This document shows positions 11,829 to 36,343 of a stretch of 41,019 bases of DNA, one piece after another. A program made the position numbers and the translations under genes. The stretch's first letter is position 1. Every line of letters begins with the position of its first letter. Below the pieces are notes generated by a model. The model did not search any database, had not been told where the DNA came from, and saw only the letters and a list, made by a program, of their open reading frames with translations. The stretch spans positions 1-41,019 of the forward strand of contig JASFIT010000001.1 of assembly GCA_050122535.1 (NCBI GenBank). The letters are read 5' to 3'. The stretch is from Desulfobacteraceae bacterium. GTDB lineage: Bacteria > Desulfobacterota > DSM-4660 > Desulfatiglandales > HGW-15.

Positions 11829-12314
11829 ATGAAAGCACCACTTAAAAAAAGAAAATACACACGGTTGAAGAATAGAGAGATCTATTCCCAGGTTGGTGTG
11901 ATCGCCCATGTGATCATCGGCACCTTTGATAAACGACCCTATTTCGAACAAAGGGAGCTAGCCCAGAGACTCTGTCAGGTACTAATAGAAACTGCGAAAG
12001 AAAACCGGATCAAGATTTATGCATACTGCATAATGCCAGATCATGTCCATTTGCTGTTTGAGTCTTCCGAAAGCATGGGCGTCATTGAATTCGTCAGATA
12101 TATCAAAGGACGCTTTGCCACTTGGTGCCGTAAGAACAATAGGAACATGCGGTTGCAAAAAAGTTTTTATGACCACCTTTTGAGAAAAGAAGAAGACGTT
12201 TATAGCGCTGCAAAATACATAATGGGGAATCCAGTTCGAGCCGGAATCGAAACTCGTGTGGGCAATTATCCTTTCGCCGGATCCTTAGTGTTCGACTTCT
12301 CCGGTGGCATGTAA
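11829..12314 (+). CDS. REP-associated tyrosine transposase (RAYT; IS200/IS605-like Y1 HUH transposase)
   Basis: 161 aa. HUH motif in YCIMPDHVHLLF, and catalytic-Tyr region AAKYIMGNPVRAG typical of RAYT/TnpA-REP. REP hairpins on both flanks. Confidence 0.75.
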   Translation: MKAPLKKRKYTRLKNREIYSQVGVIAHVIIGTFDKRPYFEQRELAQRLCQVLIETAKENRIKIYAYCIMPDHVHLLFESSESMGVIEFVRYIKGRFATWCRKNNRNMRLQKSFYDHLLRKEEDVYSAAKYIMGNPVRAGIETRVGNYPFAGSLVFDFSGGM

Positions 12315-12421
12315 AATGCCACCCTACGACCCAATTCGTAGGGTCGGGTTTTACACCCGACCGGTGAGATTTAGGGTGGGGATTTACCCGCCAAAGCGCT
12401 GTGGCGGGTGAATTCCCCACC
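12304..12421. repeat. Cluster of four REP-type hairpins abutting or overlapping the RAYT 3' end
   Basis: GTGGCAT-gtaaa-ATGCCAC; CCTACGA-cccaa-TTCGTAGG; GGTCGGG-ttttaca-CCCGACC; GGGGATTTACCCGCC-aaagcgctgt-GGCGGGTGAATTCCCC. The first and third recur at 9250..9301. The TTTACCCGCC half recurs at 11798..11812. Confidence 0.6.
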
Positions 12422-23472: not shown

Positions 23473-23922
23473 TTAGGCCGATTTGATCTCGATCTTTTTG
23501 ACGGACTGCTCCTTTGTCTTGGGCAGATTGAGTTTCAAGACACCGTCTTTGTAAGTAGCCTTTACCTTCGCAGAATCCACTTCCGATGGAAGTTCAAACG
23601 ACCTGGAGAAGGATCCATATCTTCGTTCTACTCTGTGGTAATTCTCCTCCTTCTCCTCCTGTTCGCTCTTTTTCTCCCCCTTGAGTGTGAGAACACGACC
23701 GTTCAGAGAAATGTCAATGTCCTTAGCCTCCATGCCAGGGATCTCCGCTTTTACGACAATCTCCTTGCCCGTCTCAGAGACGTCTATTGCGGGCATCCAC
23801 TCCCCCTCCCGAACGTGAAGATCAAAAGGCCGCCAGTCAAAGACCCGGTCAAACATTCTGTCCATTTCACTCCTAAATCGGTCCAGCTGTCTTCGCTCTC
23901 GCGATGGTATTAAATCTAACAT
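23473..23922 (-). CDS. Small heat-shock protein (Hsp20/alpha-crystallin family)
   Basis: 149 aa. PAIDVSETGKEIVVKAEIPGMEAKDIDISLNGRVLTLKGEKK...RSFELPSEVD...A.YKDGVLKLNLPK. Confidence 0.9.
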   Translation of the reverse strand: MLDLIPSRERRQLDRFRSEMDRMFDRVFDWRPFDLHVREGEWMPAIDVSETGKEIVVKAEIPGMEAKDIDISLNGRVLTLKGEKKSEQEEKEENYHRVERRYGSFSRSFELPSEVDSAKVKATYKDGVLKLNLPKTKEQSVKKIEIKSA

Positions 23923-24014: not shown

Positions 24015-24030
24015 GGCAACCACTGTGCCA
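24015..24030 (-). promoter_or_regulatory. Sigma-54 (-24/-12) promoter of hsp20
   Basis: The minus strand reads TGGCAC-AGTGG-TTGCC (GG-N10-GC, near consensus). The -12 element is 95 nt upstream of the ATG. Confidence 0.7.
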
Positions 24031-24083
24031 AGAGGTTAAGATATTGAAATTCCAGGGTTTCTATAATATGGCCAGGATTGAAG

Positions 24084-24100
24084 CGGAACTGCGAATTCCG
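24084..24100. promoter_or_regulatory. Candidate activator-binding palindrome (UAS), hsp20 proximal
   Basis: cgGAACtgcgaATTCcg, centred 63 bp upstream of the -24 GG. Confidence 0.55.
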
Positions 24101-24184
24101 GTTATTCCCTATAGATGTTATGCTACTTAGGTTCTCTTGGGTTTAAATCTCTCCAACATGTTGGATTAATTGAATGATCCAAAA

Positions 24185-24201
24185 AAGAACTGCCTGTTCC
24201 G
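24185..24201. promoter_or_regulatory. Candidate activator-binding palindrome (UAS), hsp20 distal
   Basis: aaGAACtgcctGTTCcg, 101 bp from the proximal site. Confidence 0.45.
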
Positions 24202-24230
24202 CTTTGTTTAACAGAAGAACTCGCAATTCC

Positions 24231-24809
24231 TCACCCTGTCTTACTCACAACCGTCAGTTCCTTTTCTCTTCTCTCCGCGTAGGGGTCTGCCAGGTGATGG
24301 CTGTATTTACTGATCATCCACAGCTCTGGAATGATTTCTGAGACCAACTCACCGTCATCAAATACGCGCACAATTGAGCTCTCTGAAACCACGATAGCTA
24401 CAGCATTAGTTTCTTTAGTGATTGAGGCTGCCGCCATATGACGGCTACCAAATCCCAAAGGTAGATCTATATTCTGAGACGCAGTGTTGATATAGAGGCA
24501 GGCCGAGACCACCACCCCATCATCAGAGATAACAAATGCGCCATCAAGTTGGGTCAGTTCTTTTACGGTCTCTCTCATGTTGGGATCATCTATACGTTTA
24601 AGCTCTTCGGAATGACCCTTTAGGGGATCGAGAATGATGTTCCTGGACCGTTTCAATACTTCATCTGAGTCCGAGACCACTAACAAGGTCCCCACTCTAC
24701 GGCCTTCACGACCCTCCCGGGCGATTTCCACAGCCAAAAGCAAAACATGCTCAAGGGTAATCAGGTTAATGTTTCGCTCTTCGCAACATACATCACGTAA
24801 GAGTTTCAA
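24231..24809 (-). CDS. Soluble DAC/DisA_N-domain protein (diadenylate-cyclase-like)
   Basis: 192 aa. TQLDGAFVISDDGVVVSA (DGA motif) and LPLGFGSRHMAAASITKETNAVAIVVSESS (RHR motif position reads RHM). No TM segments. Confidence 0.6.
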   Translation of the reverse strand: MKLLRDVCCEERNINLITLEHVLLLAVEIAREGREGRRVGTLLVVSDSDEVLKRSRNIILDPLKGHSEELKRIDDPNMRETVKELTQLDGAFVISDDGVVVSACLYINTASQNIDLPLGFGSRHMAAASITKETNAVAIVVSESSIVRVFDDGELVSEIIPELWMISKYSHHLADPYAERREKELTVVSKTG

Positions 24810-24908
24810 TGGAGTTTCCCTTCCAATCGTATTTCGGCTTACACCTATTACTGAGCATCAACTTCCTCGAAATCGCCATCCACAACATTTTCGTATGGCG
24901 GTATCTAA

Positions 24909-26135
24909 TCAAATAGATTCTCTGAAGTGGTCCCACAACCTAGGTAACTGGGTCCGAGGGTCAGCTACGTATTCATCTGGACTGATGTCGATAAAATCAT
25001 CATTTCTATTCTTTGAGTCCCTAAGGCGTAACTCATCAATCAAGCACTCAACATGCTCCTTTGGGTCAAGGGCGTGATCTAGGAGGCCAACGTATGCCAA
25101 TCTGGTCCACAACGACCATGGGGGTTTGGTACTGAGCGGGGAGTCTGGATCAGCTAGACTCAACCAGCTTACACCCTCCAGTCCCTGCTCGTTCAATCGC
25201 CTAGCAGACTCCAAAATTTCTCCAGATTCACGCATCTCACCCAATAAACTCCAGCCGATCTCAACTTCTATGGGTCGCCTGAAAAGCCATTGGGTCACCG
25301 TGCCTAAATATGCTGTGATCAATAGTTCGCCGACTAGATCCTCCCGTTTCTTGAGGCCGAGTTGCTCACTCTCGGAACCGCTCATTTTGAAACCATCCAC
25401 CTCAGCAGCAAGAGCTTGAGGCATTTGCGGATCCAAAAGCTCCGACCACCCTAAGCCCATGTAAATAGTTCCACTCTCGTCGCACTCCCTAATCTCGGCA
25501 ATATAGGACCTAAGCGCTATTTCAGCCACATGAAGCTCAGGCCTTGCCCATTCGAGAGCCCTGTCCAAGATGAGCCAACCCGTTAAGGCGGTGTGGCCGT
25601 GGACGGCAGTAACCACCTCGCGGAAAAGCCTTATCCTTTTCTGGAATATGAAGGGATCTGCCCACCAGTTGAAGGGCCAAAGATTTCGAATCCGACCATC
25701 CACAAAGACTTTGCCAGCTTTGGAGTCCCGGACTCCTCTAACCAAGTAAGGAGCCACGAAATTCAGCCCAAGTATTCGCTGGGCCGGTGCGATTAACCAG
25801 GCGTTGAGCTTAGCTTCGCCCACCTGGTCTAGGGCCTTAACAAGCCCATCCAGGTACTTCACTTTGGCCCTCGTCCCTTGCAACAGGGGCTCCTCCAAGA
25901 CTGGCAATAAGAGTCGGTCTAGGCCCAAAGACTTGGCCACTTTGGCCGCCCGGCCTAATCGAGCTGGCTCCGGCGGCTCCAGACCGACTAGACCCCTGAT
26001 TGGGCAGATGTATGTTGCTGAAATCGGCATTTCCTGCTTACGCTCATTTCTGAATTCTTCGAGGAGTCTCAGTTTTCCCGATTGCGGTATCTGCGATTTG
26101 CCGTGAGGAAAAGGGGATGCCAATTTGCGACGCAT
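24909..26135 (-). CDS. Hypothetical protein (408 aa). Possibly a TIM-barrel glycoside-hydrolase-like fold, but not securely recognised.
   Basis: Long ORF in an operon-like arrangement with the MarR and DAC genes. No diagnostic motif identified. Confidence 0.45.
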   Translation of the reverse strand: MRRKLASPFPHGKSQIPQSGKLRLLEEFRNERKQEMPISATYICPIRGLVGLEPPEPARLGRAAKVAKSLGLDRLLLPVLEEPLLQGTRAKVKYLDGLVKALDQVGEAKLNAWLIAPAQRILGLNFVAPYLVRGVRDSKAGKVFVDGRIRNLWPFNWWADPFIFQKRIRLFREVVTAVHGHTALTGWLILDRALEWARPELHVAEIALRSYIAEIRECDESGTIYMGLGWSELLDPQMPQALAAEVDGFKMSGSESEQLGLKKREDLVGELLITAYLGTVTQWLFRRPIEVEIGWSLLGEMRESGEILESARRLNEQGLEGVSWLSLADPDSPLSTKPPWSLWTRLAYVGLLDHALDPKEHVECLIDELRLRDSKNRNDDFIDISPDEYVADPRTQLPRLWDHFRESI

Positions 26136-26207
26136 CCCCTTTCCTGATAGATCAAATAAGGTCAGAACTCGAAGTTCCGCTTTCGAAGATTCCTTTGATC
26201 TTCTTGC

Positions 26208-26687
26208 TCATAGGTCTATTGAGGAAACTTCCACGGTTTTTATAAATTCCAGCAAGATTACAAGCCCTTCAGAAATTACCTGTAATTCCTCTAGGGCAAG
26301 TTTTTTAAAGTGGTTCGCAAGGAGCCTTTGAATTGGCCCACGCGCTGAATGGACAACTTGGCGGCCCATATCAGAGATTACCACATGAACAATGCGACGG
26401 TCTTCACTGAATCGCATTCGTTTCACTAGTCCTTTTTCTTGCAGTCGATCAACAATACCAGTAACCGTGGAGGGAGTTACAAGAACGTGCTTGCTTATAT
26501 CATTGATTGAAAGGCTGTTCTTTTTTAGCAACGTGCGCAGGCATAGTAATTGGCCTAAAGTGACTCCGAATTCTTTTTCCAAGTTTTTAGAGTACATGGT
26601 GGAAATATGGGTGGCAGCTCTTAATGCCAAAAAAATATTTTCCATGTTGTCTTGAATTAGACTTATTTCGGTATTCTCAGCATCCAT
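26208..26687 (-). CDS. MarR-family transcriptional regulator
   Basis: 159 aa. Winged-HTH region LGQLLCLRTLLKKNSLSINDISKHVLVTPSTVTGIVDRLQEKGLVKRMRFSEDRR. Confidence 0.8.
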   Translation of the reverse strand: MDAENTEISLIQDNMENIFLALRAATHISTMYSKNLEKEFGVTLGQLLCLRTLLKKNSLSINDISKHVLVTPSTVTGIVDRLQEKGLVKRMRFSEDRRIVHVVISDMGRQVVHSARGPIQRLLANHFKKLALEELQVISEGLVILLEFIKTVEVSSIDL

Positions 26688-26693
26688 ATGCGC

Positions 26694-26897
26694 TCACCCC
26701 TTCTTAGAAGCGGGCCGCCGCTCTAAACCGCTTCTCCGCTCTACGCCAACTTTGATGTCAGCAGCTTTTCTTCGGTCCCTACCACTTCTTCGGTCTTTGC
26801 CATTTCTCCGGTCTTGACCACTTCGTCTCTCAGGAATATGTTCGTTATAAGAAAATTGCCTTTCGACCAATCCCTGAACGCCTGTCGCCGTTATCAC
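26694..26897 (-). CDS. Small arginine-rich repeat protein (RRSGxDRR repeats), 6 nt upstream of marR
   Basis: 67 aa: ERRSGQDRRNGKDRRSGRDRRK...ERRSGLERR. GTG start with no clear Shine-Dalgarno, so coding status is uncertain. Confidence 0.4.
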   Translation of the reverse strand: MITATGVQGLVERQFSYNEHIPERRSGQDRRNGKDRRSGRDRRKAADIKVGVERRSGLERRPASKKG

Positions 26898-27062
26898 TTA
26901 AGAAAAGAATCAACTCTGACTCTATCACGTCCGCATATTCCTTTGTATGTAGCTGAAACCAACATAGTGTCTCTTCGACGCCCTATTTCAAAGTTTGTAA
27001 TGGTGTAGGGAGACTATCTAGTCTTCGCTGTCTTCTTGCTCCAATTGCCAACTGTGGCAAAC

Positions 27063-27343
27063 TCAGATTTCTTCTGGGGTTAGCTTTGCTCTCTTTCCAC
27101 CAACGAAAGTAAACTTGGGCGCTTTCGTGCTAAGTCGCAGCATCTTATTCTTGAAGACCTCCCGACCAGAACTGTACACACGCCTTAGTCCATTGTATCT
27201 ACCAGAATCTCACATCCATCATCGCAATTTCTTCTCAGAGCATTAAACAACTTCTGCACAGAAGAACCGTCAAGGTCACCTTTTAATTTTATACAAAGTT
27301 TACCGTTTCTTTGCAAAAAGCACATTCTGAAATTGGACGCCAT
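27063..27343 (-). pseudogene. STAS-like (anti-sigma-antagonist-like) gene split by a frameshift
   Basis: Frame 1: MASNFRMCFLQRNGKLCIKLKGDLDGSSVQKLFNALRRNCDDGCEILVDTMD-stop (27185..27343). The adjacent frame continues GLRRVYSSGREVFKNKMLRLSTKAPKFTFVGGKRAKLTPEEI (to 27063). Together these match the STAS pattern. Confidence 0.35.
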
Positions 27344-27368
27344 ACCCTCCACCCCTTTTCGAATCTTG

Positions 27369-27464
27369 CTAAAACCAGAAAAACCTTAGAGTGCTTGCCA
27401 CGCGACCTTTATATTTCCGGATAGCCTCTGCCACCTCCTTCATGGATCCCGGCTTGTCTTCTAG
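27369..27464 (-). pseudogene. ACT-domain remnant in the +1 frame of the CBS gene
   Basis: The alternative frame reads LEDKPGSMKEVAEAIRKYKGRVASTL, a typical ACT beta-alpha start as in CBS-ACT (AcuB-like) proteins. It is preceded by TAG and truncated after ~31 codons. Confidence 0.45.
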
Positions 27465-27903
27465 CTAAGAGGCAAAGAATATATTTCTTACTGAGCGCCG
27501 TTACAGACATTAGCGCTTTCAATATGTTTGTTTGTGTTATCATTCCTACCAGCTCTCCTTTCTGGTCAACCACAGGAGCCCCCGATATCTTATTATTCAG
27601 TAGTATTTCAGCAGTCTCTTCCACAGTATAATCAGGCTCAACTGTGATGGGATTTCTCGTCATAATTTCACTGACCTTGGTTTTGTTTTTGAGGTTAATG
27701 AGTTCATGAATATCCAGGCTGGTCGCCTCAGAAGCGGAACCTTCTTTGAGATCCCTATCCGTGACGATTCCCACCAGCTTACCTTTTTTCATGACAGGAA
27801 GCATAAGAATTTTATGCTTTTTCAGAAGCTTAACGGCATCCATCATGGTGTCGTTTATGTCAGCAGTAATCAGCTTTTTGCTCATCCAATTCTTAACTAG
27901 CAT
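27409..27903 (-). CDS. CBS-pair domain protein. The C-terminus is out of frame relative to an ACT-domain remnant.
   Basis: 164 aa. Two CBS motifs (MLPVMKKGKLVGIVTDRDL; GAPVVDQKGELVGMITQTNILKAL). The last ~25 aa (ILCLLARRQAGIHEGGGRGYPEI) look non-native. Confidence 0.7.
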   Translation of the reverse strand: MLVKNWMSKKLITADINDTMMDAVKLLKKHKILMLPVMKKGKLVGIVTDRDLKEGSASEATSLDIHELINLKNKTKVSEIMTRNPITVEPDYTVEETAEILLNNKISGAPVVDQKGELVGMITQTNILKALMSVTALSKKYILCLLARRQAGIHEGGGRGYPEI

Positions 27904-28328
27904 CTGTAGCCCTCTTCCTTGTTTTGAGAATTGTTAAAACAAGATTCTCTATCCCAACGGATGTCATTATGCGAACTTATTTATAGTTCTTAGGCTACTT
28001 CTTCGATAATCTGCCCCTCCCTAAACGAGGTGGTTACGCTACTTCGATAACTCACTTCCCCTTGTAGCCACTCGCTTTAGGGACTTTAATTTGGCCTTAA
28101 TAGGAAGCAACCTCCTCTCTAAAATCCTTATGGCAAGGTTTGTACCACAATCATAACCTATTGATATTTGTAAACTTATCTCTGTAGGGTATGGATCGGC
28201 GGAATTACTTGTTCTGATAAATTTGAGAAAACAGGAAGGTTAACTCCTACGGGAAACTCTGTAGGTCCCTAAGTTATTGAAATGGCGAGGACATTTAGAA
28301 AGCAGAATTTTGGGTTCCGTTTTTTTTG

Positions 28329-28357
28329 TTGCCGGAACCATAAGTTCTTTTTATTAT
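28329..28357 (+). promoter_or_regulatory. Sigma-70-like promoter of the activator gene, with the regulon palindrome in its spacer
   Basis: TTGCCG-N17-TATTAT. The palindrome cgGAACcataaGTTCtt occupies 28333..28349. A GGAGG Shine-Dalgarno precedes the ATG at 28395. Confidence 0.4.
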
Positions 28358-28394
28358 AAGAAGCCGCAAGAAAGCCAGCTTTGCGGAGGCCAAG

Positions 28395-29792
28395 ATGAAA
28401 TCTATTCTTGTTCTATCAGGAAACGAAGAGGTTTTCCGTAAGATTCGTTCCAGTTTTCATTCAGAGTACAGACTTGGAAGCGCATCCAGCAGTCAGGCCG
28501 CCTTGGATATACTCCACAAAAAGCGCTACGATTCTATTTTTTTTGACATTGGGCTGCTGCAAGAGGCAGTGGAAGGTAACCAATATAGAGCCGCCCTGGA
28601 GCCGTTCTGGCGTATGCACCCAACGATCAAGATCATCATTATGACCCCCCAAGAGATGATTAGAGAAGCTGTGAGGGCAGTAAAGGCAGGTGCAAGTGAC
28701 TATGTGACTTTCCCTATTGTTGAAGAGGAAGTTAGACTCATAACGGAAACAGTCATGGAATCTACGATTGTTCAGTCGGAACTTGAGTATCTGCGAGATC
28801 AATTTTGGGAACCAGAGACATTAGAGATCGTACAGACGAAGAATGCCCAGATGGAAAAGGTATATGATAAGATACGCTCCGTTGCGCCAACCAAAAGTAC
28901 AGTTCTGCTGATGGGCGAAACGGGAACAGGTAAGGGCGTGCTAGCTAATCTCATTCATCAGCATAGTAACCGACGGAATGACCAGTTTATCAGCGTGCAC
29001 TGCGGAGCAATTCCCGATACCTTATTAGAGAGCGAGCTTTTTGGACATGAAAAAGGCGCCTTCACAGGTGCTATTAAGCGAAAGCTTGGGAAATTTGAGA
29101 TTGCCAGTGGAGGAACCATTTTTCTGGATGAAGTTGGAACCATTACACCGTCCGCACAGATTAAACTATTACAGGTATTGCAGGATGGCACTTTTCAACG
29201 CGTGGGAGGAGAAGAGACCTTTGATGCGAATGTTAGGGTGGTCACTGCCACAAATGCGGATCTAAAGGAAATGTGTGAGGAGGGGAGGTTCAGGAAAGAC
29301 CTCTATTACCGATTAAATGTGTTTCCCATTGAAATTCCTCCATTGAGGGAGCGGCCGGAGGATATCCCTCATCTCGTGGAAGGGTCCCTGAAAAGGCTTA
29401 ATATGTTTAACACAAAGGAAATCTACCATATCGATACACAGGTGCTAGAAGCATTTAGGCATTACTCGTGGCCTGGAAATATCCGGGAATTGGAAAACCT
29501 TATTGAGAGGGCTTATATTTTGGAGAGTTCCCCTAGGTTGACACCGGAAAGTTTTCCGTCTGAACTGTTTGAATCTGGACTTTCTTTTGCAACTCTGTCG
29601 GTAGATTCTTCTTCTACCCTGGCGGAGGTAAGACGGAGGGGTATTGAAAATATTGAAAGGAACTACCTCAAGGACCTACTGACGCAAAAGAAAGGCAAAA
29701 TAAAGGAATCCGCAGAGGCTGCCGGAATTACCACACGCCAGCTCCACAAACTCATGGCGAAACATGAAATCCGCAAAGAAGAATTTAAATAA
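28395..29792 (+). CDS. Sigma-54-dependent transcriptional activator (NtrC/Fis family): receiver-like domain, AAA+ domain, Fis-type HTH
   Basis: 465 aa. Walker A GETGTGKG, intact GAFTGA (ESELFGHEKGAFTGA), Walker B FLDEVG, R-finger region, and C-terminal HTH (KIKESAEAAGITTRQLHKLM). Confidence 0.9.
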   Translation: MKSILVLSGNEEVFRKIRSSFHSEYRLGSASSSQAALDILHKKRYDSIFFDIGLLQEAVEGNQYRAALEPFWRMHPTIKIIIMTPQEMIREAVRAVKAGASDYVTFPIVEEEVRLITETVMESTIVQSELEYLRDQFWEPETLEIVQTKNAQMEKVYDKIRSVAPTKSTVLLMGETGTGKGVLANLIHQHSNRRNDQFISVHCGAIPDTLLESELFGHEKGAFTGAIKRKLGKFEIASGGTIFLDEVGTITPSAQIKLLQVLQDGTFQRVGGEETFDANVRVVTATNADLKEMCEEGRFRKDLYYRLNVFPIEIPPLRERPEDIPHLVEGSLKRLNMFNTKEIYHIDTQVLEAFRHYSWPGNIRELENLIERAYILESSPRLTPESFPSELFESGLSFATLSVDSSSTLAEVRRRGIENIERNYLKDLLTQKKGKIKESAEAAGITTRQLHKLMAKHEIRKEEFK

Positions 29793-29894
29793 CCCCGCCT
29801 TACACAAGAGCAAATCTTCCTGACCAAAGGTCGAGGCATCTTTCGTTAAACCTCAAAACGATCTCCTCCCGCTCCAAAGACCATGCTGTAATTG

Positions 29895-29959
29895 GTCATC
29901 CCGGCCCAGTCCCGCGGAGCGGGATGCTCGCCCGGAATGACAGCTTTGTTGAATTGCGA
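29895..29959. repeat. REP-like palindromic element (copy 2, uninterrupted)
   Basis: GTCATCCCGGCCCAGTCCCGCGGAGCGGGATGCTCGCCCGGAATGACAGCTTTGTTGAATTGCGA. Terminal inverted repeat GTCATCCCGG/CCGGAATGAC. Confidence 0.6.
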
Positions 29960-30017
29960 TACTGTCGCTGACAGGGGAAAGAAATTAAGTATTAACTTGA
30001 TCGCCTAGGACCATCTT

Positions 30018-30875
30018 TCAGACCAGTAGTTCAATCCCTTCTTGCACAGCAAAACAATCCACCGCGCTATTTGCTTCAAGTATTCTTTCTTGACAAAGGT
30101 CTACGTACATTTCTATTTGCTCGTCCGTATGGTCGGGATCATGATGGAATATGCCGAACCTCCTAACCTCTGCTTTAATACTAAAATCCGTTGCCGAGTT
30201 AAAAGTCGAGTGACCCCAGCCTCTAGTTAACCGGTATTCATTATCCGTGTATTGTGCGTCATGCAAAAGGAGATCAGCACCTTTGCAAAAATTAATGTAG
30301 CCGTCTATGTCTACCCTCTTCTCGTGTATAAAATCTAGCTCGTGATCAGTAAAAAACACGAAAGACTTCCCCTCCTCCATAATTTTGATCCCGTATGATC
30401 CATTTGGATGATTTAATCGTATAGGGACCACTTGGGCTGAACCGATGATCCTCTTCTGTGGATCACCCTCTGTGAAGTCGAACTCAGCCTTCATGGCATC
30501 GAATCGGACAGGGAAATATGGCGCTTCCATTTGATGTCTCAAGTAGTTCCGCAATGACCTTTTGGCTCGAGGACCTCCCCTTACATGGATCTTATAGCTC
30601 TCCAAGTATGCGGGTCCAAAAAACGGAAAACCCATAAGGTGATCCCAGTGGGCATGAGTAAGAAATAAATGTATCACCGTGATGTTTTCCTCTTTTGCCA
30701 GTGCCTTCCCCAACTTTCTGATGCCCGAGCCAGCATCAAGAATGATGACAGTCCCGTCGCTGAGCCTTACCTCAACGCAAGTGGTGTTCCCGCCGTATTT
30801 CACTGTACTTGGTCCTGGGGTAGGCAAAGAACCTCTACAACCCCAAATTCTTATTTTCATGGGAACACGCTCCAT
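30018..30875 (-). CDS. MBL-fold metallo-hydrolase
   Basis: 285 aa. IWGCRGSLP, ILDAGSG, LTHAHWDHLMGFPFF (HxHxDH), and a C-terminal GWGHST...HHDP. Confidence 0.8.
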   Translation of the reverse strand: MERVPMKIRIWGCRGSLPTPGPSTVKYGGNTTCVEVRLSDGTVIILDAGSGIRKLGKALAKEENITVIHLFLTHAHWDHLMGFPFFGPAYLESYKIHVRGGPRAKRSLRNYLRHQMEAPYFPVRFDAMKAEFDFTEGDPQKRIIGSAQVVPIRLNHPNGSYGIKIMEEGKSFVFFTDHELDFIHEKRVDIDGYINFCKGADLLLHDAQYTDNEYRLTRGWGHSTFNSATDFSIKAEVRRFGIFHHDPDHTDEQIEMYVDLCQERILEANSAVDCFAVQEGIELLV

Positions 30876-30933
30876 ATTACAAATGCACGCCTAACAAAAG
30901 TTTCGAGGTCCAGCAGCCACTGTAAATTGTTCA

Positions 30934-30949
30934 CGCAACAAATATGCCA
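30934..30949 (-). promoter_or_regulatory. Sigma-54 (-24/-12) promoter of the MBL-fold hydrolase gene
   Basis: The minus strand reads TGGCAT-ATTTG-TTGCG (GG-N10-GC), about 60 nt upstream of the ATG at 30875. Confidence 0.65.
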
Positions 30950-30986
30950 TTCTCTCTAAGGTAATGGAAGTTTTTAATCTCATCAT

Positions 30987-31003
30987 GGGAACTCTCAGTT
31001 CAC
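30987..31003. promoter_or_regulatory. Candidate activator-binding palindrome
   Basis: ggGAACtctcaGTTCac. Confidence 0.4.
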
Positions 31004-31016
31004 TTTCATGGCATAA

Positions 31017-31033
31017 CGGAACTGAAATTTCTT
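31017..31033. promoter_or_regulatory. Candidate activator-binding palindrome (degenerate right half)
   Basis: cgGAACtgaaaTTTCtt, 102 bp from the site at 31119. Confidence 0.4.
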
Positions 31034-31118
31034 ATTTAGATTTTCTTTGTCATTTCAATTTATTAGCCAAACGCTAGCCGATAATGGGTACATCAAAGTG
31101 CTCTTCGGACGTTCAAAA

Positions 31119-31135
31119 CGGAACAGATAATTCCG
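31119..31135. promoter_or_regulatory. Candidate activator-binding palindrome (UAS) for the 31190 promoter
   Basis: cgGAACagataATTCcg, centred 64 bp upstream of the -24 GG. Confidence 0.55.
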
Positions 31136-31189
31136 AGTCCGTTTCCCCCAAGAAACTAAAAGTTGCGGGATATCAGGTCCTTATCGGTT

Positions 31190-31205
31190 TGGCATAACTG
31201 TTGCT
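31190..31205 (+). promoter_or_regulatory. Sigma-54 (-24/-12) promoter of the 31299..34224 gene string
   Basis: TGGCAT-AACTG-TTGCT (GG-N10-GC), about 95 nt upstream of the ATG at 31299. Confidence 0.7.
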
Positions 31206-31298
31206 CCGGTTTCCATGAACTAAACGTGAGACCCTTCCTGAACTCGACACCTATCCTGTTGAGGGAATGGACGTTATAAGCAAAAAGGAGATCCGGTG

Positions 31299-31511
31299 AT
31301 GAACGTATTAGCTCAGAAAAGTGGAACTTTTGGTCTAGATTCCCCTTACCTAAGCGCCGTCAGGACGACGCTATATGACCTTATTGAAGCGATGACTGAC
31401 GAGGCCGAACCGACTAATGAGGATTTGATTTTTGTGGCCGTCTTAGATCTTACTGAATCTGGCAAAATAAAATGGACACGACCGCGTCGAGCTTTCAAGC
31501 TTTTATATTAA
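31299..31511 (+). CDS. Small acidic hypothetical protein (70 aa)
   Basis: ATG 31299 lies 8 nt after GGAG. It is the first gene after the sigma-54 promoter. No family recognised. Confidence 0.5.
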   Translation: MNVLAQKSGTFGLDSPYLSAVRTTLYDLIEAMTDEAEPTNEDLIFVAVLDLTESGKIKWTRPRRAFKLLY

Positions 31512-31614
31512 TGATTGGCAAGGTCCAGGTAGCAAGACACCGACTGACGAAACGAAATAGCAGGAACCCTAACTGTTACCCCCATGGCATCCATACAGAA
31601 GAGAGGAGAATCAG

Positions 31615-31866
31615 ATGCTCAATACAAATGATAGGCTAATTACGATCCGCGGCCTTATCATCCCAGTGAATTGGGACGAGGGGGGCGAAGTAACCGCAAT
31701 TGCTACCTCCACCTTTGATGAGGAGGAGTATCTGCTGGATTATAATAAAAAAATAGAACGACTCTTCTCGCTTATCCGAAAAGAAGTGGAAGTCACCGGC
31801 TATGTAAGAAAGGAGAAGGGGAAAAAAATCATGAAAGTCCAAAAATTTCACCTAAAGAGGACCTAA
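31615..31866 (+). CDS. Small protein, paralog 1 of a three-member family in this window (unrecognised family)
   Basis: 83 aa with a GAGAGGAG Shine-Dalgarno. Shares ITIxG-x-(I/V)xPxxWDxxGxV(T/S)...(E)xLF...VEVTGxV...(I/L)xVxx(F/Y) with 34806..35072 and 35144..35479. Confidence 0.6.
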   Translation: MLNTNDRLITIRGLIIPVNWDEGGEVTAIATSTFDEEEYLLDYNKKIERLFSLIRKEVEVTGYVRKEKGKKIMKVQKFHLKRT

Positions 31867-31917
31867 CATACGGGACCCGCCACACTCCATACCACTGCTT
31901 CACCCGCCCATGAATCC

Positions 31918-33060
31918 ATGTCTGGCAATCGTATAATCGGCTATGACTTTGCCAGGGCTCTAACCCTTCTCGGCATGCTGCTCATAAATTTTTGGGTGAT
32001 GATGGAAAATACTCCTTTCGATCCCCATTGGCTCGTTTCCACGTTGGATCTCATTCAAGGACGGGCAGCAGCAACATTTGTTCTTCTCGCCGGAGTCGGT
32101 CTGTCCTTGATGTCAAAGAGTGCATTGCTGAACAATGACGCTGCTCGTATGAGAGAAAACCGGTATCTAATTCTTAAACGCGCGCTCTTTCTTTTTATCA
32201 TAGGGATGTTGAACAGTCTGATCTGGAGAGCAGATATCCTGCACGTCTATGGAATTTACTTTGTAATTGGGATGTGTCTCTTGATCGTTCCTACTCGTCG
32301 ACTGTTGCTGCTATCTATTATTCCTGTGGCCGTTTCTTCATTTTTCATGTTGGCGGTTGATTTTGACAGAGGACTGGCGTTTAAGACAGACACCTATTCA
32401 GCTTTCTGGAAACCAACGGCAATGGCTTGGGATATCTTTTTCAATGGCCTTTACCCCGTATTTCCTTGGGCCACTTTCCTGATCCTGGGGATGTGGCTCG
32501 GTCGACAAAGGCTGTCTGACCCTGTTTTGAGGAAGAAAATTTTGTTTATAGGAATCGGCGTCGTTGCTTTTGCTGAATGCATTTCACGCATGGTTTTTCA
32601 CCTCTCTACCTCTGGCTTGAGTGTCTTGGACGCTGATGCGTTACTCATGTGGTTCACCATAGAGCCTTGGGATCCCATGCCACTTTTCATGCTTTCAGCG
32701 GGCGGAACCGCGGTTATCGTTGTCAGCTTCAGCATTTCCATTGCACAGAAGTGGGGCAACACCAAATGGATTCTGCCTTTTGTGTCTGTTGGTCAGACTA
32801 CCCTCACTCTTTATGTCGCCCACATAATTATCGGTAGCATTGCCTTGGAAGTGATGAAAGTGTACGAAGTAGAGCCCTTTCTTTTCCCTATTTGGGGGGC
32901 ATGCGCTTTCTACATCAGTGCACTCATTCTTTGTTCTTATTGGAGAAAAAGTTTTCAAAAAGGGCCCTTAGAGTGGCTCATGCGAAGTTCTCTTGATATT
33001 CCTTTTCCGTTGCGGGCCTTTAGGCACGCAAGAGTAAAATTGGCACAACCTGATTTTTAG
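31918..33060 (+). CDS. Polytopic membrane protein, DUF418/DUF1624 (YeiB-like, acyltransferase-3-like) family
   Basis: 380 aa. N-terminus RIIGYDFARALTLLGMLLINF is typical of the family. About 10 hydrophobic helices. Confidence 0.65.
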   Translation: MSGNRIIGYDFARALTLLGMLLINFWVMMENTPFDPHWLVSTLDLIQGRAAATFVLLAGVGLSLMSKSALLNNDAARMRENRYLILKRALFLFIIGMLNSLIWRADILHVYGIYFVIGMCLLIVPTRRLLLLSIIPVAVSSFFMLAVDFDRGLAFKTDTYSAFWKPTAMAWDIFFNGLYPVFPWATFLILGMWLGRQRLSDPVLRKKILFIGIGVVAFAECISRMVFHLSTSGLSVLDADALLMWFTIEPWDPMPLFMLSAGGTAVIVVSFSISIAQKWGNTKWILPFVSVGQTTLTLYVAHIIIGSIALEVMKVYEVEPFLFPIWGACAFYISALILCSYWRKSFQKGPLEWLMRSSLDIPFPLRAFRHARVKLAQPDF

Positions 33061-33153
33061 ATGAGATATGACGGGCATTAGACTCAGCATACACCTCGTT
33101 TATGCAAGTTGCTTTCTTGAGCGTTTGACGAGGACTAAAGAGGAGGAATTCGT

Positions 33154-33315
33154 ATGAATCAAAATTTCAAAGGGCCACCCGAAACCGAATCTGCTTCTAC
33201 TCATCCAGATTTGGTCATTGATGATATTATCCAATCCATTGAGAAGGTGGATAGGGAAATAGAGAGATTTTACAAAATCCATAGAACCGAATTGACAGCC
33301 ACAGATGATGACTGA
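33154..33315 (+). CDS. Small ORF (53 aa), below the ORF-track cut-off
   Basis: ATG preceded by AGAGGAGG with 5-nt spacing. Translation: MNQNFKGPPETESASTHPDLVIDDIIQSIEKVDREIERFYKIHRTELTATDDD. Confidence 0.4.
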   Translation: MNQNFKGPPETESASTHPDLVIDDIIQSIEKVDREIERFYKIHRTELTATDDD

Positions 33316-33470
33316 AGCTCCTCAGGAGGGCGAGTGGACCAGGAGTTGACGTCTTTATTGCACCCGTTTGGTTCTATCCAAATCTGGTCCTGTGGGATTT
33401 AGGGAAACTGAATGCTTGACGATGATGATTCGGACAGTAGGGTCAGCGCGACCGAAAGGAGGAAAAGACC

Positions 33471-33686
33471 ATGAGAATCAATTGTAATATTTGCGGGTAT
33501 GAGTTGAATTTGGATCACAAAGTGTTCCAGAACTATGAAGGTCCTATCAAGTGCTTCTATTGCGGCAATGTGATGCTTATCAAAACTAGCCGGGGAATAG
33601 TAGACTCTATAGAATCATCAAGCGTTCTACTACCACAATCCCCCGGACGTGCGGTCAGGCGCACGCCTCAAAACCCGGAATTGTGA
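33471..33686 (+). CDS. Small zinc-ribbon protein (71 aa)
   Basis: CNIC...(22 aa)...CFYC. Strong Shine-Dalgarno AAAGGAGG upstream. Confidence 0.55.
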   Translation: MRINCNICGYELNLDHKVFQNYEGPIKCFYCGNVMLIKTSRGIVDSIESSSVLLPQSPGRAVRRTPQNPEL

Positions 33687-33723
33687 TTTCTTCCAACTTT
33701 CAGGATGAAATAGGAGCTCGATC

Positions 33724-34224
33724 ATGCAGAACCAGAGACTGGATGTAAAGCAAGAGGTAGCCGAAAAAGGTTCTACAATTTTGGTGGCAGTAGATTTTTC
33801 CCCTTGTTCCCTGTTGGCATTGAGGAAGGCAAAGTCTATATTGGGGCAAAAGCCAGCCCGAATCTTGGTGCTCCATGTGATTGACAAAGATTTCATTGAA
33901 AGATGTGTTCGCCACGGCCTGGGGTCAGAGGAAGAAGTCAGCAAAAAACTATTTCTTCGTGCCAAAGAAAAACTTGATCATGTCCTTCGTCAAGAAGGAA
34001 TGGATGTTGAGCACGTGGAAAAATTGGTTTGCCCAGGGACGCCCTACCTGGAAATAAACAAGAGGGCACTCCAGATCGGCGCCGACATGGTTGTAATGGG
34101 ATGTAGTGGAAACTCCGGGGACATGGATAATATCTTTTTCGGTAGCACAACCGAGAGGGTCTTGAGATTTATCAAACGTCCCGTGCTCTGTGTGCCAGAT
34201 AGCGAAGACAATAAACTGGACTAA
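33724..34224 (+). CDS. Universal stress protein (UspA family)
   Basis: 166 aa. ILVAVDFSPCS, ILVLHVID, MVVMGCSG, FGSTTERVLRFIKRPVLCVP. Confidence 0.8.
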   Translation: MQNQRLDVKQEVAEKGSTILVAVDFSPCSLLALRKAKSILGQKPARILVLHVIDKDFIERCVRHGLGSEEEVSKKLFLRAKEKLDHVLRQEGMDVEHVEKLVCPGTPYLEINKRALQIGADMVVMGCSGNSGDMDNIFFGSTTERVLRFIKRPVLCVPDSEDNKLD

Positions 34225-34310
34225 AGAATCCGCACCCGAAGAATACGGCTCTAAGTATGCCCCCCATAGGGGGGCGTCACTGCTGAATCCCACGGTACCC
34301 TGACCAGGAA

Positions 34311-34397
34311 AAATCCCCCCGCCCGCCATTCCATCCTCCGTAGCAAGCTACTGCGGAGGACGGGCGCGAACCGCTCAGGCGAGGCGGGGGGGGATTT
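34311..34397. repeat. REP-like long hairpin related to elements at 9200..9390
   Basis: AAATCCCCCCGCC...GGCGGGGGGGGATTT arms. The interior CCGTAGCAAGCTACTGCGG and CCGCTCAGGCGAGGCGGG both recur in the 9118..9437 element. A separate perfect hairpin GCCCCCC-ata-GGGGGGC lies at 34259..34275. Confidence 0.5.
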
Positions 34398-34517
34398 GAT
34401 AGAGATTCCTTTAATCAACACCATCTCGGCCTTCAGTCCAGCCCCATTCGGGACCGGCATAGCCCGTCCCACATGACCGCACCCATAGGGTACGGGTTTC
34501 CAAGTCTCACTAAATTT

Positions 34518-34534
34518 CGGAATTCTGGGTTCCG
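34518..34534. promoter_or_regulatory. Candidate activator-binding palindrome (distal)
   Basis: cgGAATtctggGTTCcg. Confidence 0.5.
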
Positions 34535-34548
34535 ATAGCCGAAGAAAG

Positions 34549-34565
34549 CAGAACTCAAAGTTCTT
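34549..34565. promoter_or_regulatory. Candidate activator-binding palindrome
   Basis: caGAACtcaaaGTTCtt. Confidence 0.4.
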
Positions 34566-34649
34566 CGCGTCATTTTCACGTTTTTTCAATATCTTAAACG
34601 TCTACAAAGGTTGTTGCGGCTGACAGCCAGCCCACCCAGCCGAGCCTAT

Positions 34650-34666
34650 CTGAACTATGAGTTCTT
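34650..34666. promoter_or_regulatory. Candidate activator-binding palindrome (proximal) for the 34720 promoter
   Basis: ctGAACtatgaGTTCtt, centred 63 bp upstream of the -24 GG. Confidence 0.45.
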
Positions 34667-34719
34667 ATAGTATGCTGCACATATGAGCATAATGTAGACA
34701 TATCAACAAGTTATGGCTG

Positions 34720-34735
34720 TGGCATATCTATTGCT
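34720..34735 (+). promoter_or_regulatory. Sigma-54 (-24/-12) promoter of the 34806 operon
   Basis: TGGCAT-ATCTA-TTGCT (GG-N10-GC), about 72 nt upstream of the ATG at 34806. Confidence 0.7.
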
Positions 34736-34805: not shown

Positions 34806-35072
34806 ATGCAAGAGCATCAAAAGAGAGAGATCACCATTCGCGGCACTATCCTTCCAGATGAGTGGGACAAGAATGGTCATGTTACGAGTGTCGGGATAGG
34901 GACCGAAGATGAAGAGGATTATATTATCTTTCTGGATAAAATTGGAGAGAAATTATTCAAGTTCGTCGACCGAAAAGTAGAGGCTACGGGTACTGTGAAG
35001 AACGTGTACGGCGATTTTGTCCTCACGGTAAACAACTACAAGCTCTTACCAGAGGACGATGAAGAAGAATAA
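34806..35072 (+). CDS. Small protein, paralog 2 of the three-member family (acidic C-terminal tail)
   Basis: 88 aa. REITIRGTILPDEWDKNGHVTSVGIGTEDEEDYII...GEKLFKFVDRKVEATGTVKN...VLTVNNYKLLPEDDEEE. Confidence 0.6.
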   Translation: MQEHQKREITIRGTILPDEWDKNGHVTSVGIGTEDEEDYIIFLDKIGEKLFKFVDRKVEATGTVKNVYGDFVLTVNNYKLLPEDDEEE

Positions 35073-35143
35073 TTTTGTGCGCAACATTCTTTGCAATCAG
35101 TTTCTAAATAAGTGACGGACTGTTCGCATGAGGAGATAAACAT

Positions 35144-35479
35144 ATGAAAAGGGAAGATTCATCAGAGGAGATTACCATAACGGGTTATGTGACACCAAGA
35201 GATTGGGACTGGAACGATGTTGTGAGCGCTGTCAGCATAGAGACCCATGATAATGTGTATGCAATCGAACCAAATAGCCTGGGTGAAGAACTCTTCAGTG
35301 AACTGGATAGCGAGGTGGAAGTAACAGGATTTCTCGAAAAAGACAGGGATGGAACAAAGCGAATAACTGTTACAAGCTATGAAGTCCTGATCGAACCCGG
35401 CGACAGAGAAGAGGAGAATTACGGATATGACGATGATGGGCAGGAGTTTGGATCTAAACAAGGGGAAAGTCCGATCTAA
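35144..35479 (+). CDS. Small protein, paralog 3 of the three-member family (long acidic tail)
   Basis: 111 aa. EEITITGYVTPRDWDWNDVVSAVSIETHDNVYAI...GEELFSELDSEVEVTGFLEKD...RITVTSYEVL, then an acidic tail. Confidence 0.6.
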   Translation: MKREDSSEEITITGYVTPRDWDWNDVVSAVSIETHDNVYAIEPNSLGEELFSELDSEVEVTGFLEKDRDGTKRITVTSYEVLIEPGDREEENYGYDDDGQEFGSKQGESPI

Positions 35480-35615
35480 ATCTGCAAGAAGAAAGGAAAT
35501 AGGAAATGAAAGAGAGTGCAGTTGATCTTTTTAGTGGGGCCAGTGGACAGCACGTACCGTTTACTGAAGAAGCTGACTTTCCGAAAGATTACATTTCTTC
35601 AGAAGAGGAGCTTAT

Positions 35616-35996
35616 ATGAATCCTAGGCAGCTTGAGTATTTCCGACGTAAACTCCTCTCCTGGCGTGAGCAACTTTTGAAAGAATCGGGTGAGAGCCTCC
35701 AGCGCCTAAAGGAAAGTAGCACAAGGGAAATTGATCTTTTGGACCAAGGCACTCTTGAGACGAGTAGCAATTTAAAGCTTAGCACTCGCGATAGGTGCCT
35801 GGTACTTGTCGACGAAATTGATGATGCTTTAGAGAGGATCAAGGATGGTACCTACGGGTACTGTGAGGATACAGGCGAAGAAATTGGGTTGAAGCGCCTT
35901 GAAGCCCGTCCCACTGCTAGGCTCTGTCTTGAAGCCCAAGAATGGCGTGAACGTGGGAGGAGGCGAAAGGGGCGGTGGAATCTGGCCTATGCCTGA
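35616..35996 (+). CDS. dksA: DksA/TraR-family RNA-polymerase-binding protein, zinc-independent DksA2-like variant
   Basis: 126 aa. Coiled-coil tip DLLDQG (DxxDxA-like). The C-terminal finger reads CEDT-x17-CLEA (CxxT...CxxA) where canonical DksA has CxxC-x17-CxxC. LKRLEARPTARLC is conserved. Confidence 0.75.
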   Translation: MNPRQLEYFRRKLLSWREQLLKESGESLQRLKESSTREIDLLDQGTLETSSNLKLSTRDRCLVLVDEIDDALERIKDGTYGYCEDTGEEIGLKRLEARPTARLCLEAQEWRERGRRRKGRWNLAYA

Positions 35997-36038
35997 TTAT
36001 TAATCAGTTTGAAGAGAATTTAAAGGAGGTTTTGAGAG

Positions 36039-36329
36039 ATGAACATAAAACCATTGAACGACAGGGTACTCGTTTTGAGGATTGAGGAGGAGCAAAAGAC
36101 CTCGGGCGGGATCGTTATTCCGGATACGGCCAAAGAAAAACCGCAGGAAGGAAAAGTGATTGCTGTTGGGCCCGGGAGATTTGACGAAAAGGGAAAACGA
36201 ATTCCTGTGGACATCAAGAAGAATGATCGCGTGCTTTTTGGCAAGTATGCGGGCAATGAAATAAAGCTTGATGGTGTGGAACATATAATAATGCGAGAGG
36301 ATGATATCCTCGGTATTGTGGACAAATAA
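36039..36329 (+). CDS. groES: Co-chaperonin GroES
   Basis: 96 aa. [12 protein letters not shown]...[24 protein letters not shown]. Confidence 0.95.
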
Positions 36330-36343
36330 GGAGGTGTTGAGTC

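Follow-up and report, generated by a model that had tools for sequence, protein, structure and literature searches.

According to the textbook view, heat-shock genes are controlled by sigma-32 or HrcA. In Escherichia coli, the small heat-shock gene ibpB has a secondary sigma-54 promoter within a sigma-32 operon, for which we know of no dedicated local activator. In the PspF-pspA system of the same organism, the activator gene is divergent from the sigma-54 stress operon and an integration host factor (IHF) site lies between the activator sites and the promoter. The PspF sites overlap the activator's own sigma-70 promoter, which results in autorepression, an arrangement also found at glnA-ntrBC. 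PspF lacks an N-terminal domain altogether, is restrained by PspA and does not receive its input through phosphorylation. At glnAp2, dimers of NtrC bind 17-bp dyads of 6-N5-6 geometry by means of a Fis-type helix-turn-helix (HTH), several sites cooperate in forming the active oligomer, and phosphorylation of the receiver domain is needed. Herein, a stretch of 41 kb from an NCBI metagenome-assembled genome labelled Desulfobacteraceae bacterium, corresponding to the whole contig JASFIT010000001.1 and called the window in the following, is analyzed by purely computational means. It carries a cluster of sigma-54 promoters around a single gene for a bacterial enhancer-binding protein (EBP), and it is highly likely that the cluster constitutes a compact sigma-54 stress regulon driven by this one dedicated protein.

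Sigma-54 promoters of chaperone genes have been described in other phyla. A map of transcription start sites in Flavobacterium psychrophilum revealed such promoters at groES-groEL, dnaK, grpE-dnaJ, lon, htpG, and clpB, but left open which of three candidate activators is responsible (PMC9723704). In 2025, a comparative prediction found sigma-54 promoters to be enriched at GroEL, GroES, IbpA, DnaK, DnaJ, and GrpE in Bacteroidota and Planctomycetota (PMC12316311). For Desulfovibrio vulgaris, the sigma-54 regulome lists envelope, nitrite, and phage-shock regulons and no chaperone regulon (PMC4641369).

A sigma-54 promoter was defined by GG and GC exactly 10 nt apart within TGGCAC-N5-TTGCW, and the window was searched with the pattern TGGCAYNNNNNTTGC (TGGCAY-N5-TTGC). 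Exactly four perfect matches were found (P1 to P4, Table 1), as had been claimed in the original prediction, against an average of 0.27 in 100 dinucleotide-preserving shuffles, none of which reached four. Each of the four is intergenic and points toward a gene. Measured from the -12 GC, the first start codon, for which a distance of 60-95 nt had been given, lies at 94 nt for P1 (hsp20, 23922), 60 nt for P2 (metallo-beta-lactamase (MBL)-fold hydrolase, 30875), 92 nt for P3 (31296), and 72 nt for P4 (34806). The perfect promoters are kept at orthologous positions even where the intergenic DNA around them has diverged, with conservation seen in L081, L083, L084, L089, and L210. L-numbers denote the loci of relatives, L210 being CP070752.1, the 3.03-Mb chromosome of a metagenome-assembled genome (MAG), and L090-L209 being metagenome loci.

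The further statement that no other convincing -24/-12 match exists in the 41 kb proved wrong for P5 (TGGTACAAACCTTGC, 230 nt from the start codon of the CBS-pair gene), which deviates from the pattern at one position but shows the full enhancer architecture described below. Another one-mismatch site, TGGCATCCCCTTTTC (P6?), is kept as doubtful because it lacks GC at -12. It has a single dyad (26163-26179, scoring 11 of 12) at a non-canonical distance of 56 bp and no IHF-like element, and it would lie 78 nt upstream of the revised start codon of an adjacent gene. The number of promoters around the activator gene is hence four, probably five, or five to six if the doubtful site is included. As a separate observation, an IS200/Y1-type transposase gene (11829-12321) ends in the palindrome TGGCATGTAAAATGCCA (12305-12321), which yields one-mismatch matches to the sigma-54 pattern on both strands; these are not promoters.

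Upstream of P1, P3, P4, and P5, the DNA can be aligned almost without gaps over 240 bp, revealing a common cassette of approximately 230 bp. Its conserved blocks are, in order, a distal dyad pair (30-31 bp apart), TTTCAANNNNTTA, a proximal dyad, (T/A)ATCAANNNNTTA, and the -24/-12 element. The dyad itself, CGGAAY-N5-RTTCCG (CGGAAYNNNNNRTTCCG), spans 17 bp and occurs in three perfect copies in the window, compared with 0.01 expected; these copies start at 24084, 31119, and 34518, and every one of them precedes a promoter of the set. Relaxed dyads (GGAAY-N5-RTTCY, at most one mismatch) form clusters at 24085/24186/24216, 28201/28304/28334, 30988/31018/31120, and 34519/34550/34651, with a single copy outside the clusters at 26164. 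When measured from the center of the promoter 15-mer, as for all dyad and element distances given here, the dyad centers of P1, P3, P4, and P5 are located 68-70, 170-172, and 200-202 bp upstream, so that their positions are constant within 2 bp. A composite proximal pattern, which joins the core of the proximal dyad to the adjacent upstream element and the promoter, matches the window three times, against 0.00 expected. Dyad-symmetric sites that are common to the promoters and situated about 70 bp or more upstream correspond to the layout of enhancers, or upstream activating sequences. In addition, an IHF-consensus-like match to WATCAANNNNTTR is found 20 bp upstream of the promoter center in P1, P3, P4, and P5 (8-9 of the 9 specified positions, perfect in P5), and a second one 136-138 bp upstream in P3, P4, and P5 (8 of 9 positions). 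Among the metagenome cassettes listed, the upstream IHF-like element was present in 30 of 73 cases. The role of IHF at RpoN promoters has been reviewed for a related phylum (PMC7962754).

The gene at 28395-29792 is the only one in the window with a Sigma54_activat domain (PF00158, E = 3e-68; Pfam scan of the window open reading frames (ORFs), E <= 1e-3), in agreement with the claim that it is the sole sigma-54 activator gene. The motifs GETGTGKG (Walker A), GAFTGA, and FLDE (Walker B) are invariant in its orthologues, and the AAA+ lid is present. HTH_8 stays below the reporting level of the scan and PF02954 is weak or faint on record for the orthologues, among which the C-terminal sequence AAGITTRQLHKLMAKH is conserved. 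The N-terminal receiver domain scores only 42 bits in Pfam. Based on residue equivalences assigned by eye, the acceptor position D51 is kept in 25 of 28 metagenomic orthologues; the acidic pair after strand 1 is Ser-x in the 6 aligned and 28 further orthologues, and the position of the KP-motif Lys is occupied by Y, F, or L in 28 of 28 and by F, Y, or C in the 6 aligned ones. No histidine kinase was detected among the window ORFs scanned, and no kinase gene is adjacent to the activator gene in the window, L081, or L089. The protein is consequently without the acidic pair, the conserved Lys, and the neighboring kinase that characterize a phosphorylated response regulator. Without the residues that aspartate phosphorylation requires, the receiver probably does not take its input from a histidine kinase. 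The "orphan" activator of the original prediction would more aptly be called an activator whose receiver domain is degenerate. It falls below every NCBIfam equivalog cut-off, the best model being the PEP-CTERM response regulator (372 vs 503 bits). Upstream of its start codon, the distal dyad pair of P5 lies at a distance of 40-90 bp, and a sigma-70-like sequence, TTGCCG-17-TATTAT (28329-28357), overlaps the distal P5 dyad at 28333-28349.

The same cassette layout was recovered in L081/L083, L084, L001, L002, L089, L086, and CP070752.1. Identity of the activator amounts to 86% in L081, L082, L083, and L087, 69% in L084, 68% in CP070752.1, 63% in L001, and 58% in L002, which is labelled Calditrichaeota. 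In the four loci with 86% identity, the cluster is more compact: hsp20 comes first, then a small-protein paralogue with a signal peptide and a cassette that is divergent from the activator gene, and after these the MBL/P2-P3 and P4 operons, the latter again with dksA-groES-groEL. The block comprising the diadenylate cyclase, an approximately 373-aa protein, MarR, and the CBS protein is absent there, and all promoters and dyads occupy the same relative positions. In L081, the P2/P3 intergenic region is 85% identical to that of the window, with dyads and promoters among the invariant stretches. L084 has a perfect sigma-54 promoter 5' of the orthologue of the window's 408-aa ORF; because of the alignment with this orthologue, the window ORF probably starts at M36 (position 26030). 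The corresponding protein family of approximately 373 aa is found within a cassette operon in L175.

In L089, groES-groEL-dksA and the activator gene are divergently oriented. A perfect TGGCACGGGTGTTGC precedes groES at a distance of 56 nt, and the dyads are centered 70, 172, and 202 bp upstream. This arrangement provides the strongest argument for the chaperonin as a presumptive direct target. In L001, L002, L086, and CP070752.1, dyads and a sigma-54 promoter come after the activator gene and lead to a member of a small-protein family with a predicted oligonucleotide/oligosaccharide-binding (OB) fold. In CP070752.1 (8188-21349), four sigma-54 promoters stand on either side of the activator gene, and all of them have one or more dyads at cassette distance. 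Their predicted targets fall into four sets: OB small proteins; a 120-aa protein, with a zinc finger and an MFS transporter; a radical-SAM enzyme resembling lysine-2,3-aminomutase, grouped with two ATP-grasp enzymes, an acetyltransferase, and an M20 peptidase; and small ORFs accompanied by an M14 peptidase, Hsp20, and a mechanosensitive channel. A scan of genome contigs with the activator gave two clear orthologues (L001 and L002) among the matches listed; the other 78 loci listed contain paralogous EBPs, which are at most 50% identical over partial segments only.

For the metagenomes, the query was restricted to the promoter-proximal half of the cassette (GCAA-N5-RTGCCA-N6-TAA-N5-TGA-N{37,42}-GAAY-N5-RTTC), and at least 120 loci were obtained, those listed containing 133 matches. 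Distal dyads, which are outside the query, were counted as present if both occurred at the expected distances with a score of at least 9 of 12. Among the matches listed, this applied to 74 of the 117 with enough upstream DNA (73 distinct sequences), compared with a background frequency of 0.045% at random positions in the 78 paralogous-EBP loci. The families encoded downstream of these 74 full cassettes, again among the matches listed, are the OB small proteins (34), a family of approximately 123 aa (18), GroES (11), DksA (10), radical-SAM lysine-aminomutase-like enzymes (9), GroEL (8), a basic 79-aa family (6), and Hsp20 (5), in addition to zinc-ribbon and coiled-coil small proteins. GroES/GroEL, Hsp20, and DksA are the most recurrent annotated cargo in this set. 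Although most contigs measure only a few kb, a relative of the activator stands beside the cassette in 41 of the 120 loci listed. Of these neighbors, 39 are 53-74% identical over the stretch held by the contig, 21 span residues 1-465, and the remaining two are short N-terminal fragments with 43-48% identity. The activator family contains no fewer than 120 sequence clusters (67-93% identity), which come without exception from MAGs or metagenomes and, where labelled, are assigned to Desulfobacteraceae, Desulfatiglandales, or Deltaproteobacteria.

The 43 of 117 matches that lack the distal dyads were not counted as members and were regarded as other sigma-54 promoters or chance. Their main groups are a MacB/FtsX ABC-transporter operon, present at 17 loci with human-gut contigs among them, and an operon whose first gene encodes a 410-aa protein. 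Several small families recur in the metagenome loci, namely the one of approximately 123 aa with KDPDWVW...FEGWYD, the basic 79-aa one with QPRRSPIRRKDK, one of approximately 114 aa with a transmembrane segment and a coiled coil, and three zinc-ribbon families.

Table 1. Positions of promoters, enhancer elements, and genes in the window.
Feature	Position	Strand	Basis or remark
hsp20, predicted P1 target	23473..23922	-	Pfam HSP20, E = 7e-26
P1 sigma-54 promoter, TGGCACAGTGGTTGC	24016..24030	-	perfect match; full cassette; 94 nt 5' of hsp20
IHF-consensus-like element, TTTCAATATCTTA	24037..24049	-	8/9 specified positions of WATCAANNNNTTR; center 20 bp upstream of P1 center
P1 proximal enhancer dyad, CGGAATTCGCAGTTCCG	24084..24100	.	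perfect palindrome; center 69 bp upstream
P1 distal dyad pair	24185..24231	.	centers 170 and 200 bp upstream, 30 bp apart
DacZ-like diadenylate cyclase gene	24231..24809		DAC domain; after the ~373-aa gene
~373-aa protein (408-aa ORF, start revised to M36)	24909..26030	-	58% identical to L084 orthologue from residue 34
P6?, doubtful sigma-54-like site, TGGCATCCCCTTTTC	26108..26122	-	one mismatch; no GC at -12
MarR-family gene	26208-26687		Pfam
CBS-pair protein, predicted P5 target	27409..27903	-	Pfam CBS, E = 3e-33
P5 sigma-54 promoter, TGGTACAAACCTTGC (TGGTAC-N5-TTGC)	28133..28147	-	one mismatch; full enhancer architecture; 5' of CBS-pair gene
P5 enhancer dyads	28200-28216, 28303-28319, 28333-28349	.	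68, 171, and 201 bp upstream
Sigma-54 activator (degenerate receiver, AAA+ with GAFTGA, putative Fis-type HTH)	28395..29792	+	Pfam; orthologue alignment
MBL-fold hydrolase, predicted P2 target	30018..30875	-	Pfam Lactamase_B_2
P2 sigma-54 promoter, TGGCATATTTGTTGC	30935..30949	-	perfect match; identical in L081
Enhancer dyads common to divergent P2/P3	30987-31003, 31017-31033, 31119-31135	.	perfect and relaxed dyad matches
P3 sigma-54 promoter, TGGCATAACTGTTGC	31190..31204	+	perfect match; cassette alignment
P3 operon	31296..34224	+	71-aa protein, OB-fold small protein, DUF418, Cys-rich protein, Usp
OB-fold small protein (P3 operon)	31615-31866
DUF418 membrane protein (P3 operon)	31918-33060
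71-aa Cys-rich protein (P3 operon)	33471-33686
Usp (P3 operon)	33724-34224
P4 enhancer dyads	34518-34534, 34549-34565, 34650-34666	.	centers 201, 170, and 69 bp upstream
P4 sigma-54 promoter, TGGCATATCTATTGC	34720..34734	+	perfect match; cassette alignment; relatives
P4 operon	34806..37966	+
OB-fold small proteins (P4 operon)	34806-35072, 35144-35479
dksA (P4 operon)	35616-35996		Pfam, NCBIfam
groES (P4 operon)	36039-36329		Pfam, NCBIfam
groEL (P4 operon)	36344-37966		Pfam, NCBIfam

The gene assignments made originally (Hsp20, MBL hydrolase, the string of small ORF, DUF418, and Usp, the small ORFs with DksA, and the activator) agree with Pfam, and groES-groEL after dksA had been missed. Because a terminator scan gave no convincing operon ends, operon limits were set by gene spacing and synteny; the gene order of the P3 operon is the same in L081. 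Between dksA and groES, the gap of 42 nt contains no promoter- or terminator-like site, and the controlling inverted repeat of chaperone expression (CIRCE, TTAGCACTC-N9-GAGTGCTAA) has no match in the window even at 3 mismatches. Together with the identical gene order in L081, these findings make it very probable that groES-groEL is part of the P4 operon and would be co-transcribed from P4. The protein of approximately 373 aa has no Pfam or NCBIfam match, and Rfam and tRNA scans of the whole window returned nothing.

Some peculiarities of the surrounding DNA were also observed. Between usp and the P4 cassette, a GC-rich insert (34225-34517; RNA fold -88 kcal/mol, z = -5.15) is present that is absent at that place in L081, with partial palindromic copies at 9353-9380 of the window and 4461-4526 of L081; it looks like a repetitive extragenic palindromic (REP)-type intergenic repeat or an insulating terminator. 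In the region around 35506-35620, the window is one base short relative to L081 just before the dksA ATG at 35616. As a consequence, the 37-aa N-terminal extension of the 163-aa DksA of the relatives appears in the window as a separate 36-aa ORF in another frame, which reflects either a frameshift or an assembly error. Genes with a cyclic di-AMP (c-di-AMP) flavor are found around the cluster, i.e., the DacZ-like cyclase, the CBS-pair protein (weak CbpB-like match), and a CitMHS transporter with four TrkA_C domains (20946-23306). The DNA between the CBS and MarR genes contains two small ORFs without annotation (26694-26897 and 27185-27352, both on the minus strand); one (67 aa) consists of ERRSGxDRR-type repeats and the other (55 aa) resembles, by eye, a fragment of a STAS domain.

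No other family accompanies the activator as constantly as the OB small proteins. This family has 164 detectable members, carries no Pfam domain and no informative name, and includes some members with a signal peptide. Its three paralogues in the window share the motif ITIxGxxxPxxWDxxGxV...VEVTG, and the small proteins of the window have no Pfam or NCBIfam match. An AlphaFold2 model of one small protein (predicted local distance difference test, pLDDT, 90.5) shows a five-stranded barrel and one helix in the order E-E-E-H-E-E, i.e., with the helix between strands 3 and 4 as in the OB-fold topology. The top Foldseek matches in the PDB are all OB folds (Stn1/Ten1, SSB, RPA, and YgiW), the best template modeling (TM) score being 0.65 for YgiW (1nnx); with E-values of only about 1e-3, they indicate the fold class and no specific family.

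On this basis, a mechanism can be proposed in which dimers of the activator would bind the 17-bp CGGAAY-N5-RTTCCG dyads through the putative C-terminal Fis-type HTH. With three dyads per promoter, roughly at -88, -190, and -220 from the expected start site, three dimers may supply or nucleate one AAA+ hexamer. IHF or a similar protein would probably bend the DNA at the two TCAANNNNTTR-like elements (approximately 20 and 137 bp upstream), allowing the ATPase to touch the sigma-54 holoenzyme parked at TGGCAY-N5-TTGC and to open the promoter. Since the distal dyads of P5 overlap the sigma-70-like promoter of the activator gene, the activator probably represses its own synthesis. The predicted targets in the window are hsp20, the CBS-pair protein, the MBL-fold hydrolase, the small-protein/DUF418/Usp operon, and the OB/dksA/groES-groEL operon, while the approximately 373-aa protein with the diadenylate cyclase may be a further one. 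Judging from the cargo, the regulon would respond to physical stress that damages proteins, for instance heat, and possibly to osmotic stress as well.

How firmly this reading stands depends on what else could explain the same elements. Were the four matches chance or relic similarities without any role in transcription, the modest excess of one-mismatch matches in the window (13 vs 5.8 expected, about twice chance) would fit. However, no shuffle produced four perfect matches, all four have the correct location and orientation, and they persist where the flanking DNA has diverged and are tied to a conserved enhancer layout; conservation effectively refutes this explanation, and its probability is negligible. 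The promoters could also be genuine and the dyads bound by a different regulator, either a repressor or an activator encoded elsewhere, with the neighboring activator serving other targets. A MarR-family gene is present in the cluster, and Desulfobacteria can carry dozens of EBPs (PMC12316311). Nevertheless, L081, L083, L089, and L210 have retained the cassettes while lacking the MarR gene and the whole block around it, an activator orthologue accompanies 41 of the 120 listed cassette-found loci despite the mostly short contigs, and a fixed distance between dyad and sigma-54 promoter is typical of enhancer sites and not of operators. Binding by another protein is accordingly judged quite improbable, and the cassette dyads most likely serve the neighboring activator. 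The local regulon with a central activator put forward in the original prediction gains support from the excess of perfect dyads and their fixed layout at four promoters, from the retention of this layout in relatives whose activators are 58-86% identical, and from the activator orthologues beside many loci found by the cassette.

A more serious question concerns the trigger, and a regulon that is real but responds to osmotic or general stationary-phase stress instead of heat or proteotoxic stress is a possibility to be taken seriously, if tentatively. The cargo includes Usp, DksA, the DacZ-like c-di-AMP cyclase, and the CBS-pair protein; the cassettes of CP070752.1 drive a mechanosensitive channel together with Hsp20, and its operon of lysine-2,3-aminomutase-like, ATP-grasp, and acetyltransferase genes resembles beta-lysine solute synthesis, the aminomutase-like gene being present in nine of the metagenome cassette operons among the matches listed. 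On the other hand, GroES/GroEL, Hsp20, and DksA, which recur most often among the annotated cargo, form the classical heat-shock set, and the two triggers are not mutually exclusive. Several points weigh against the dedicated stress regulon as proposed. Its weakest step is the nature of the stress, guessed from the cargo, and cassettes on mechanosensitive-channel and lysine-aminomutase/acetyltransferase genes in relatives point to osmotic as much as to heat stress. Another protein could bind the dyads, and rpoN is absent from the 41-kb contig. P5 has T instead of C after GG; P2, which appears to borrow the dyads of its divergent neighbor P3, does so at non-canonical distances of 53, 83, and 185 bp; and the IHF-like element at 20 bp is unusually near to the -24 box for an IHF site. 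Moreover, the co-transcription of groES-groEL from P4, situated 1.3 kb upstream, is deduced from short gaps and the absence of other signals.

Within the dedicated regulon, a bolder and rather unlikely extension would make the phosphorylation-incompetent activator the master chaperone and stress regulator of a large uncultured Desulfobacterota-type clade, replacing sigma-32/HrcA and set by titration instead of a kinase. The titrator could then be the induced chaperonin or the OB-fold small proteins. If true, this would amount to a PspA-like negative feedback built from an unrelated fold, and the interest of the system would be higher if its non-kinase input proved to be such a chaperone or OB-protein titration switch. 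Independently of this extension, a complete circuit is proposed here for an uncultured sediment lineage, including an activator family, a 17-bp dyad, a cassette that can be searched for in DNA, and its cargo. The cassette can be used as a regulon marker for the annotation of hypothetical genes in sediment metagenomes, and the system offers a compact setting in which to study stress sensing by an EBP whose receiver is degenerate.

Among the described systems, the layout is most similar to PspF/psp and NtrC/glnAp2, although the activator is classed neither with PspF nor with the canonical phosphorylated response regulators. With the psp system, it shares the divergent dedicated activator gene, putative upstream activator sites with an IHF-consensus-like element in between, and such putative sites over the activator's own sigma-70-like promoter, as well as an input that is presumably independent of phosphorylation. 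Unlike in the psp system, the cargo consists of cytoplasmic chaperones and not of membrane-stress proteins. The activator reaches 260 bits with the PspF model (cut-off 443), no PspA-family protein was detected by Pfam/NCBIfam, and the modelled small protein is an OB-fold beta-barrel and not a coiled coil. The 6-N5-6 geometry of the dyad and the domain order (receiver, AAA+, putative HTH) are those of NtrC, whereas the half-site is CGGAAC instead of TGCACC, the receiver lacks the acidic pair and the conserved lysine, and the score with the NtrC model is 319 bits (cut-off 559). As for ibpB, an Hsp20-family gene is preceded by a sigma-54 promoter.

The chaperone promoters of Bacteroidota are similar in having -24/-12 elements directly 5' of groES-groEL and protein-quality-control genes, sigma-54 thereby taking the role held elsewhere by sigma-32 or HrcA/CIRCE. 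Their sets include dnaK, grpE-dnaJ, lon, htpG, and clpB, none of which was seen under the cassette described here, and the lineage differs, being labelled Desulfobacteraceae/Desulfatiglandales. While no activator or enhancer sequence was named in the Bacteroidota studies, the activator, the dyad, and the three-site layout are defined in the present case. The principle of sigma-54 control of chaperones is thus already known from Bacteroidota, and the circuit is mechanistically conventional; what is new is the activator family with its degenerate receiver, the sequence of the dyad, the rigid three-site cassette, the small-protein cargo, and the lineage in which they occur.

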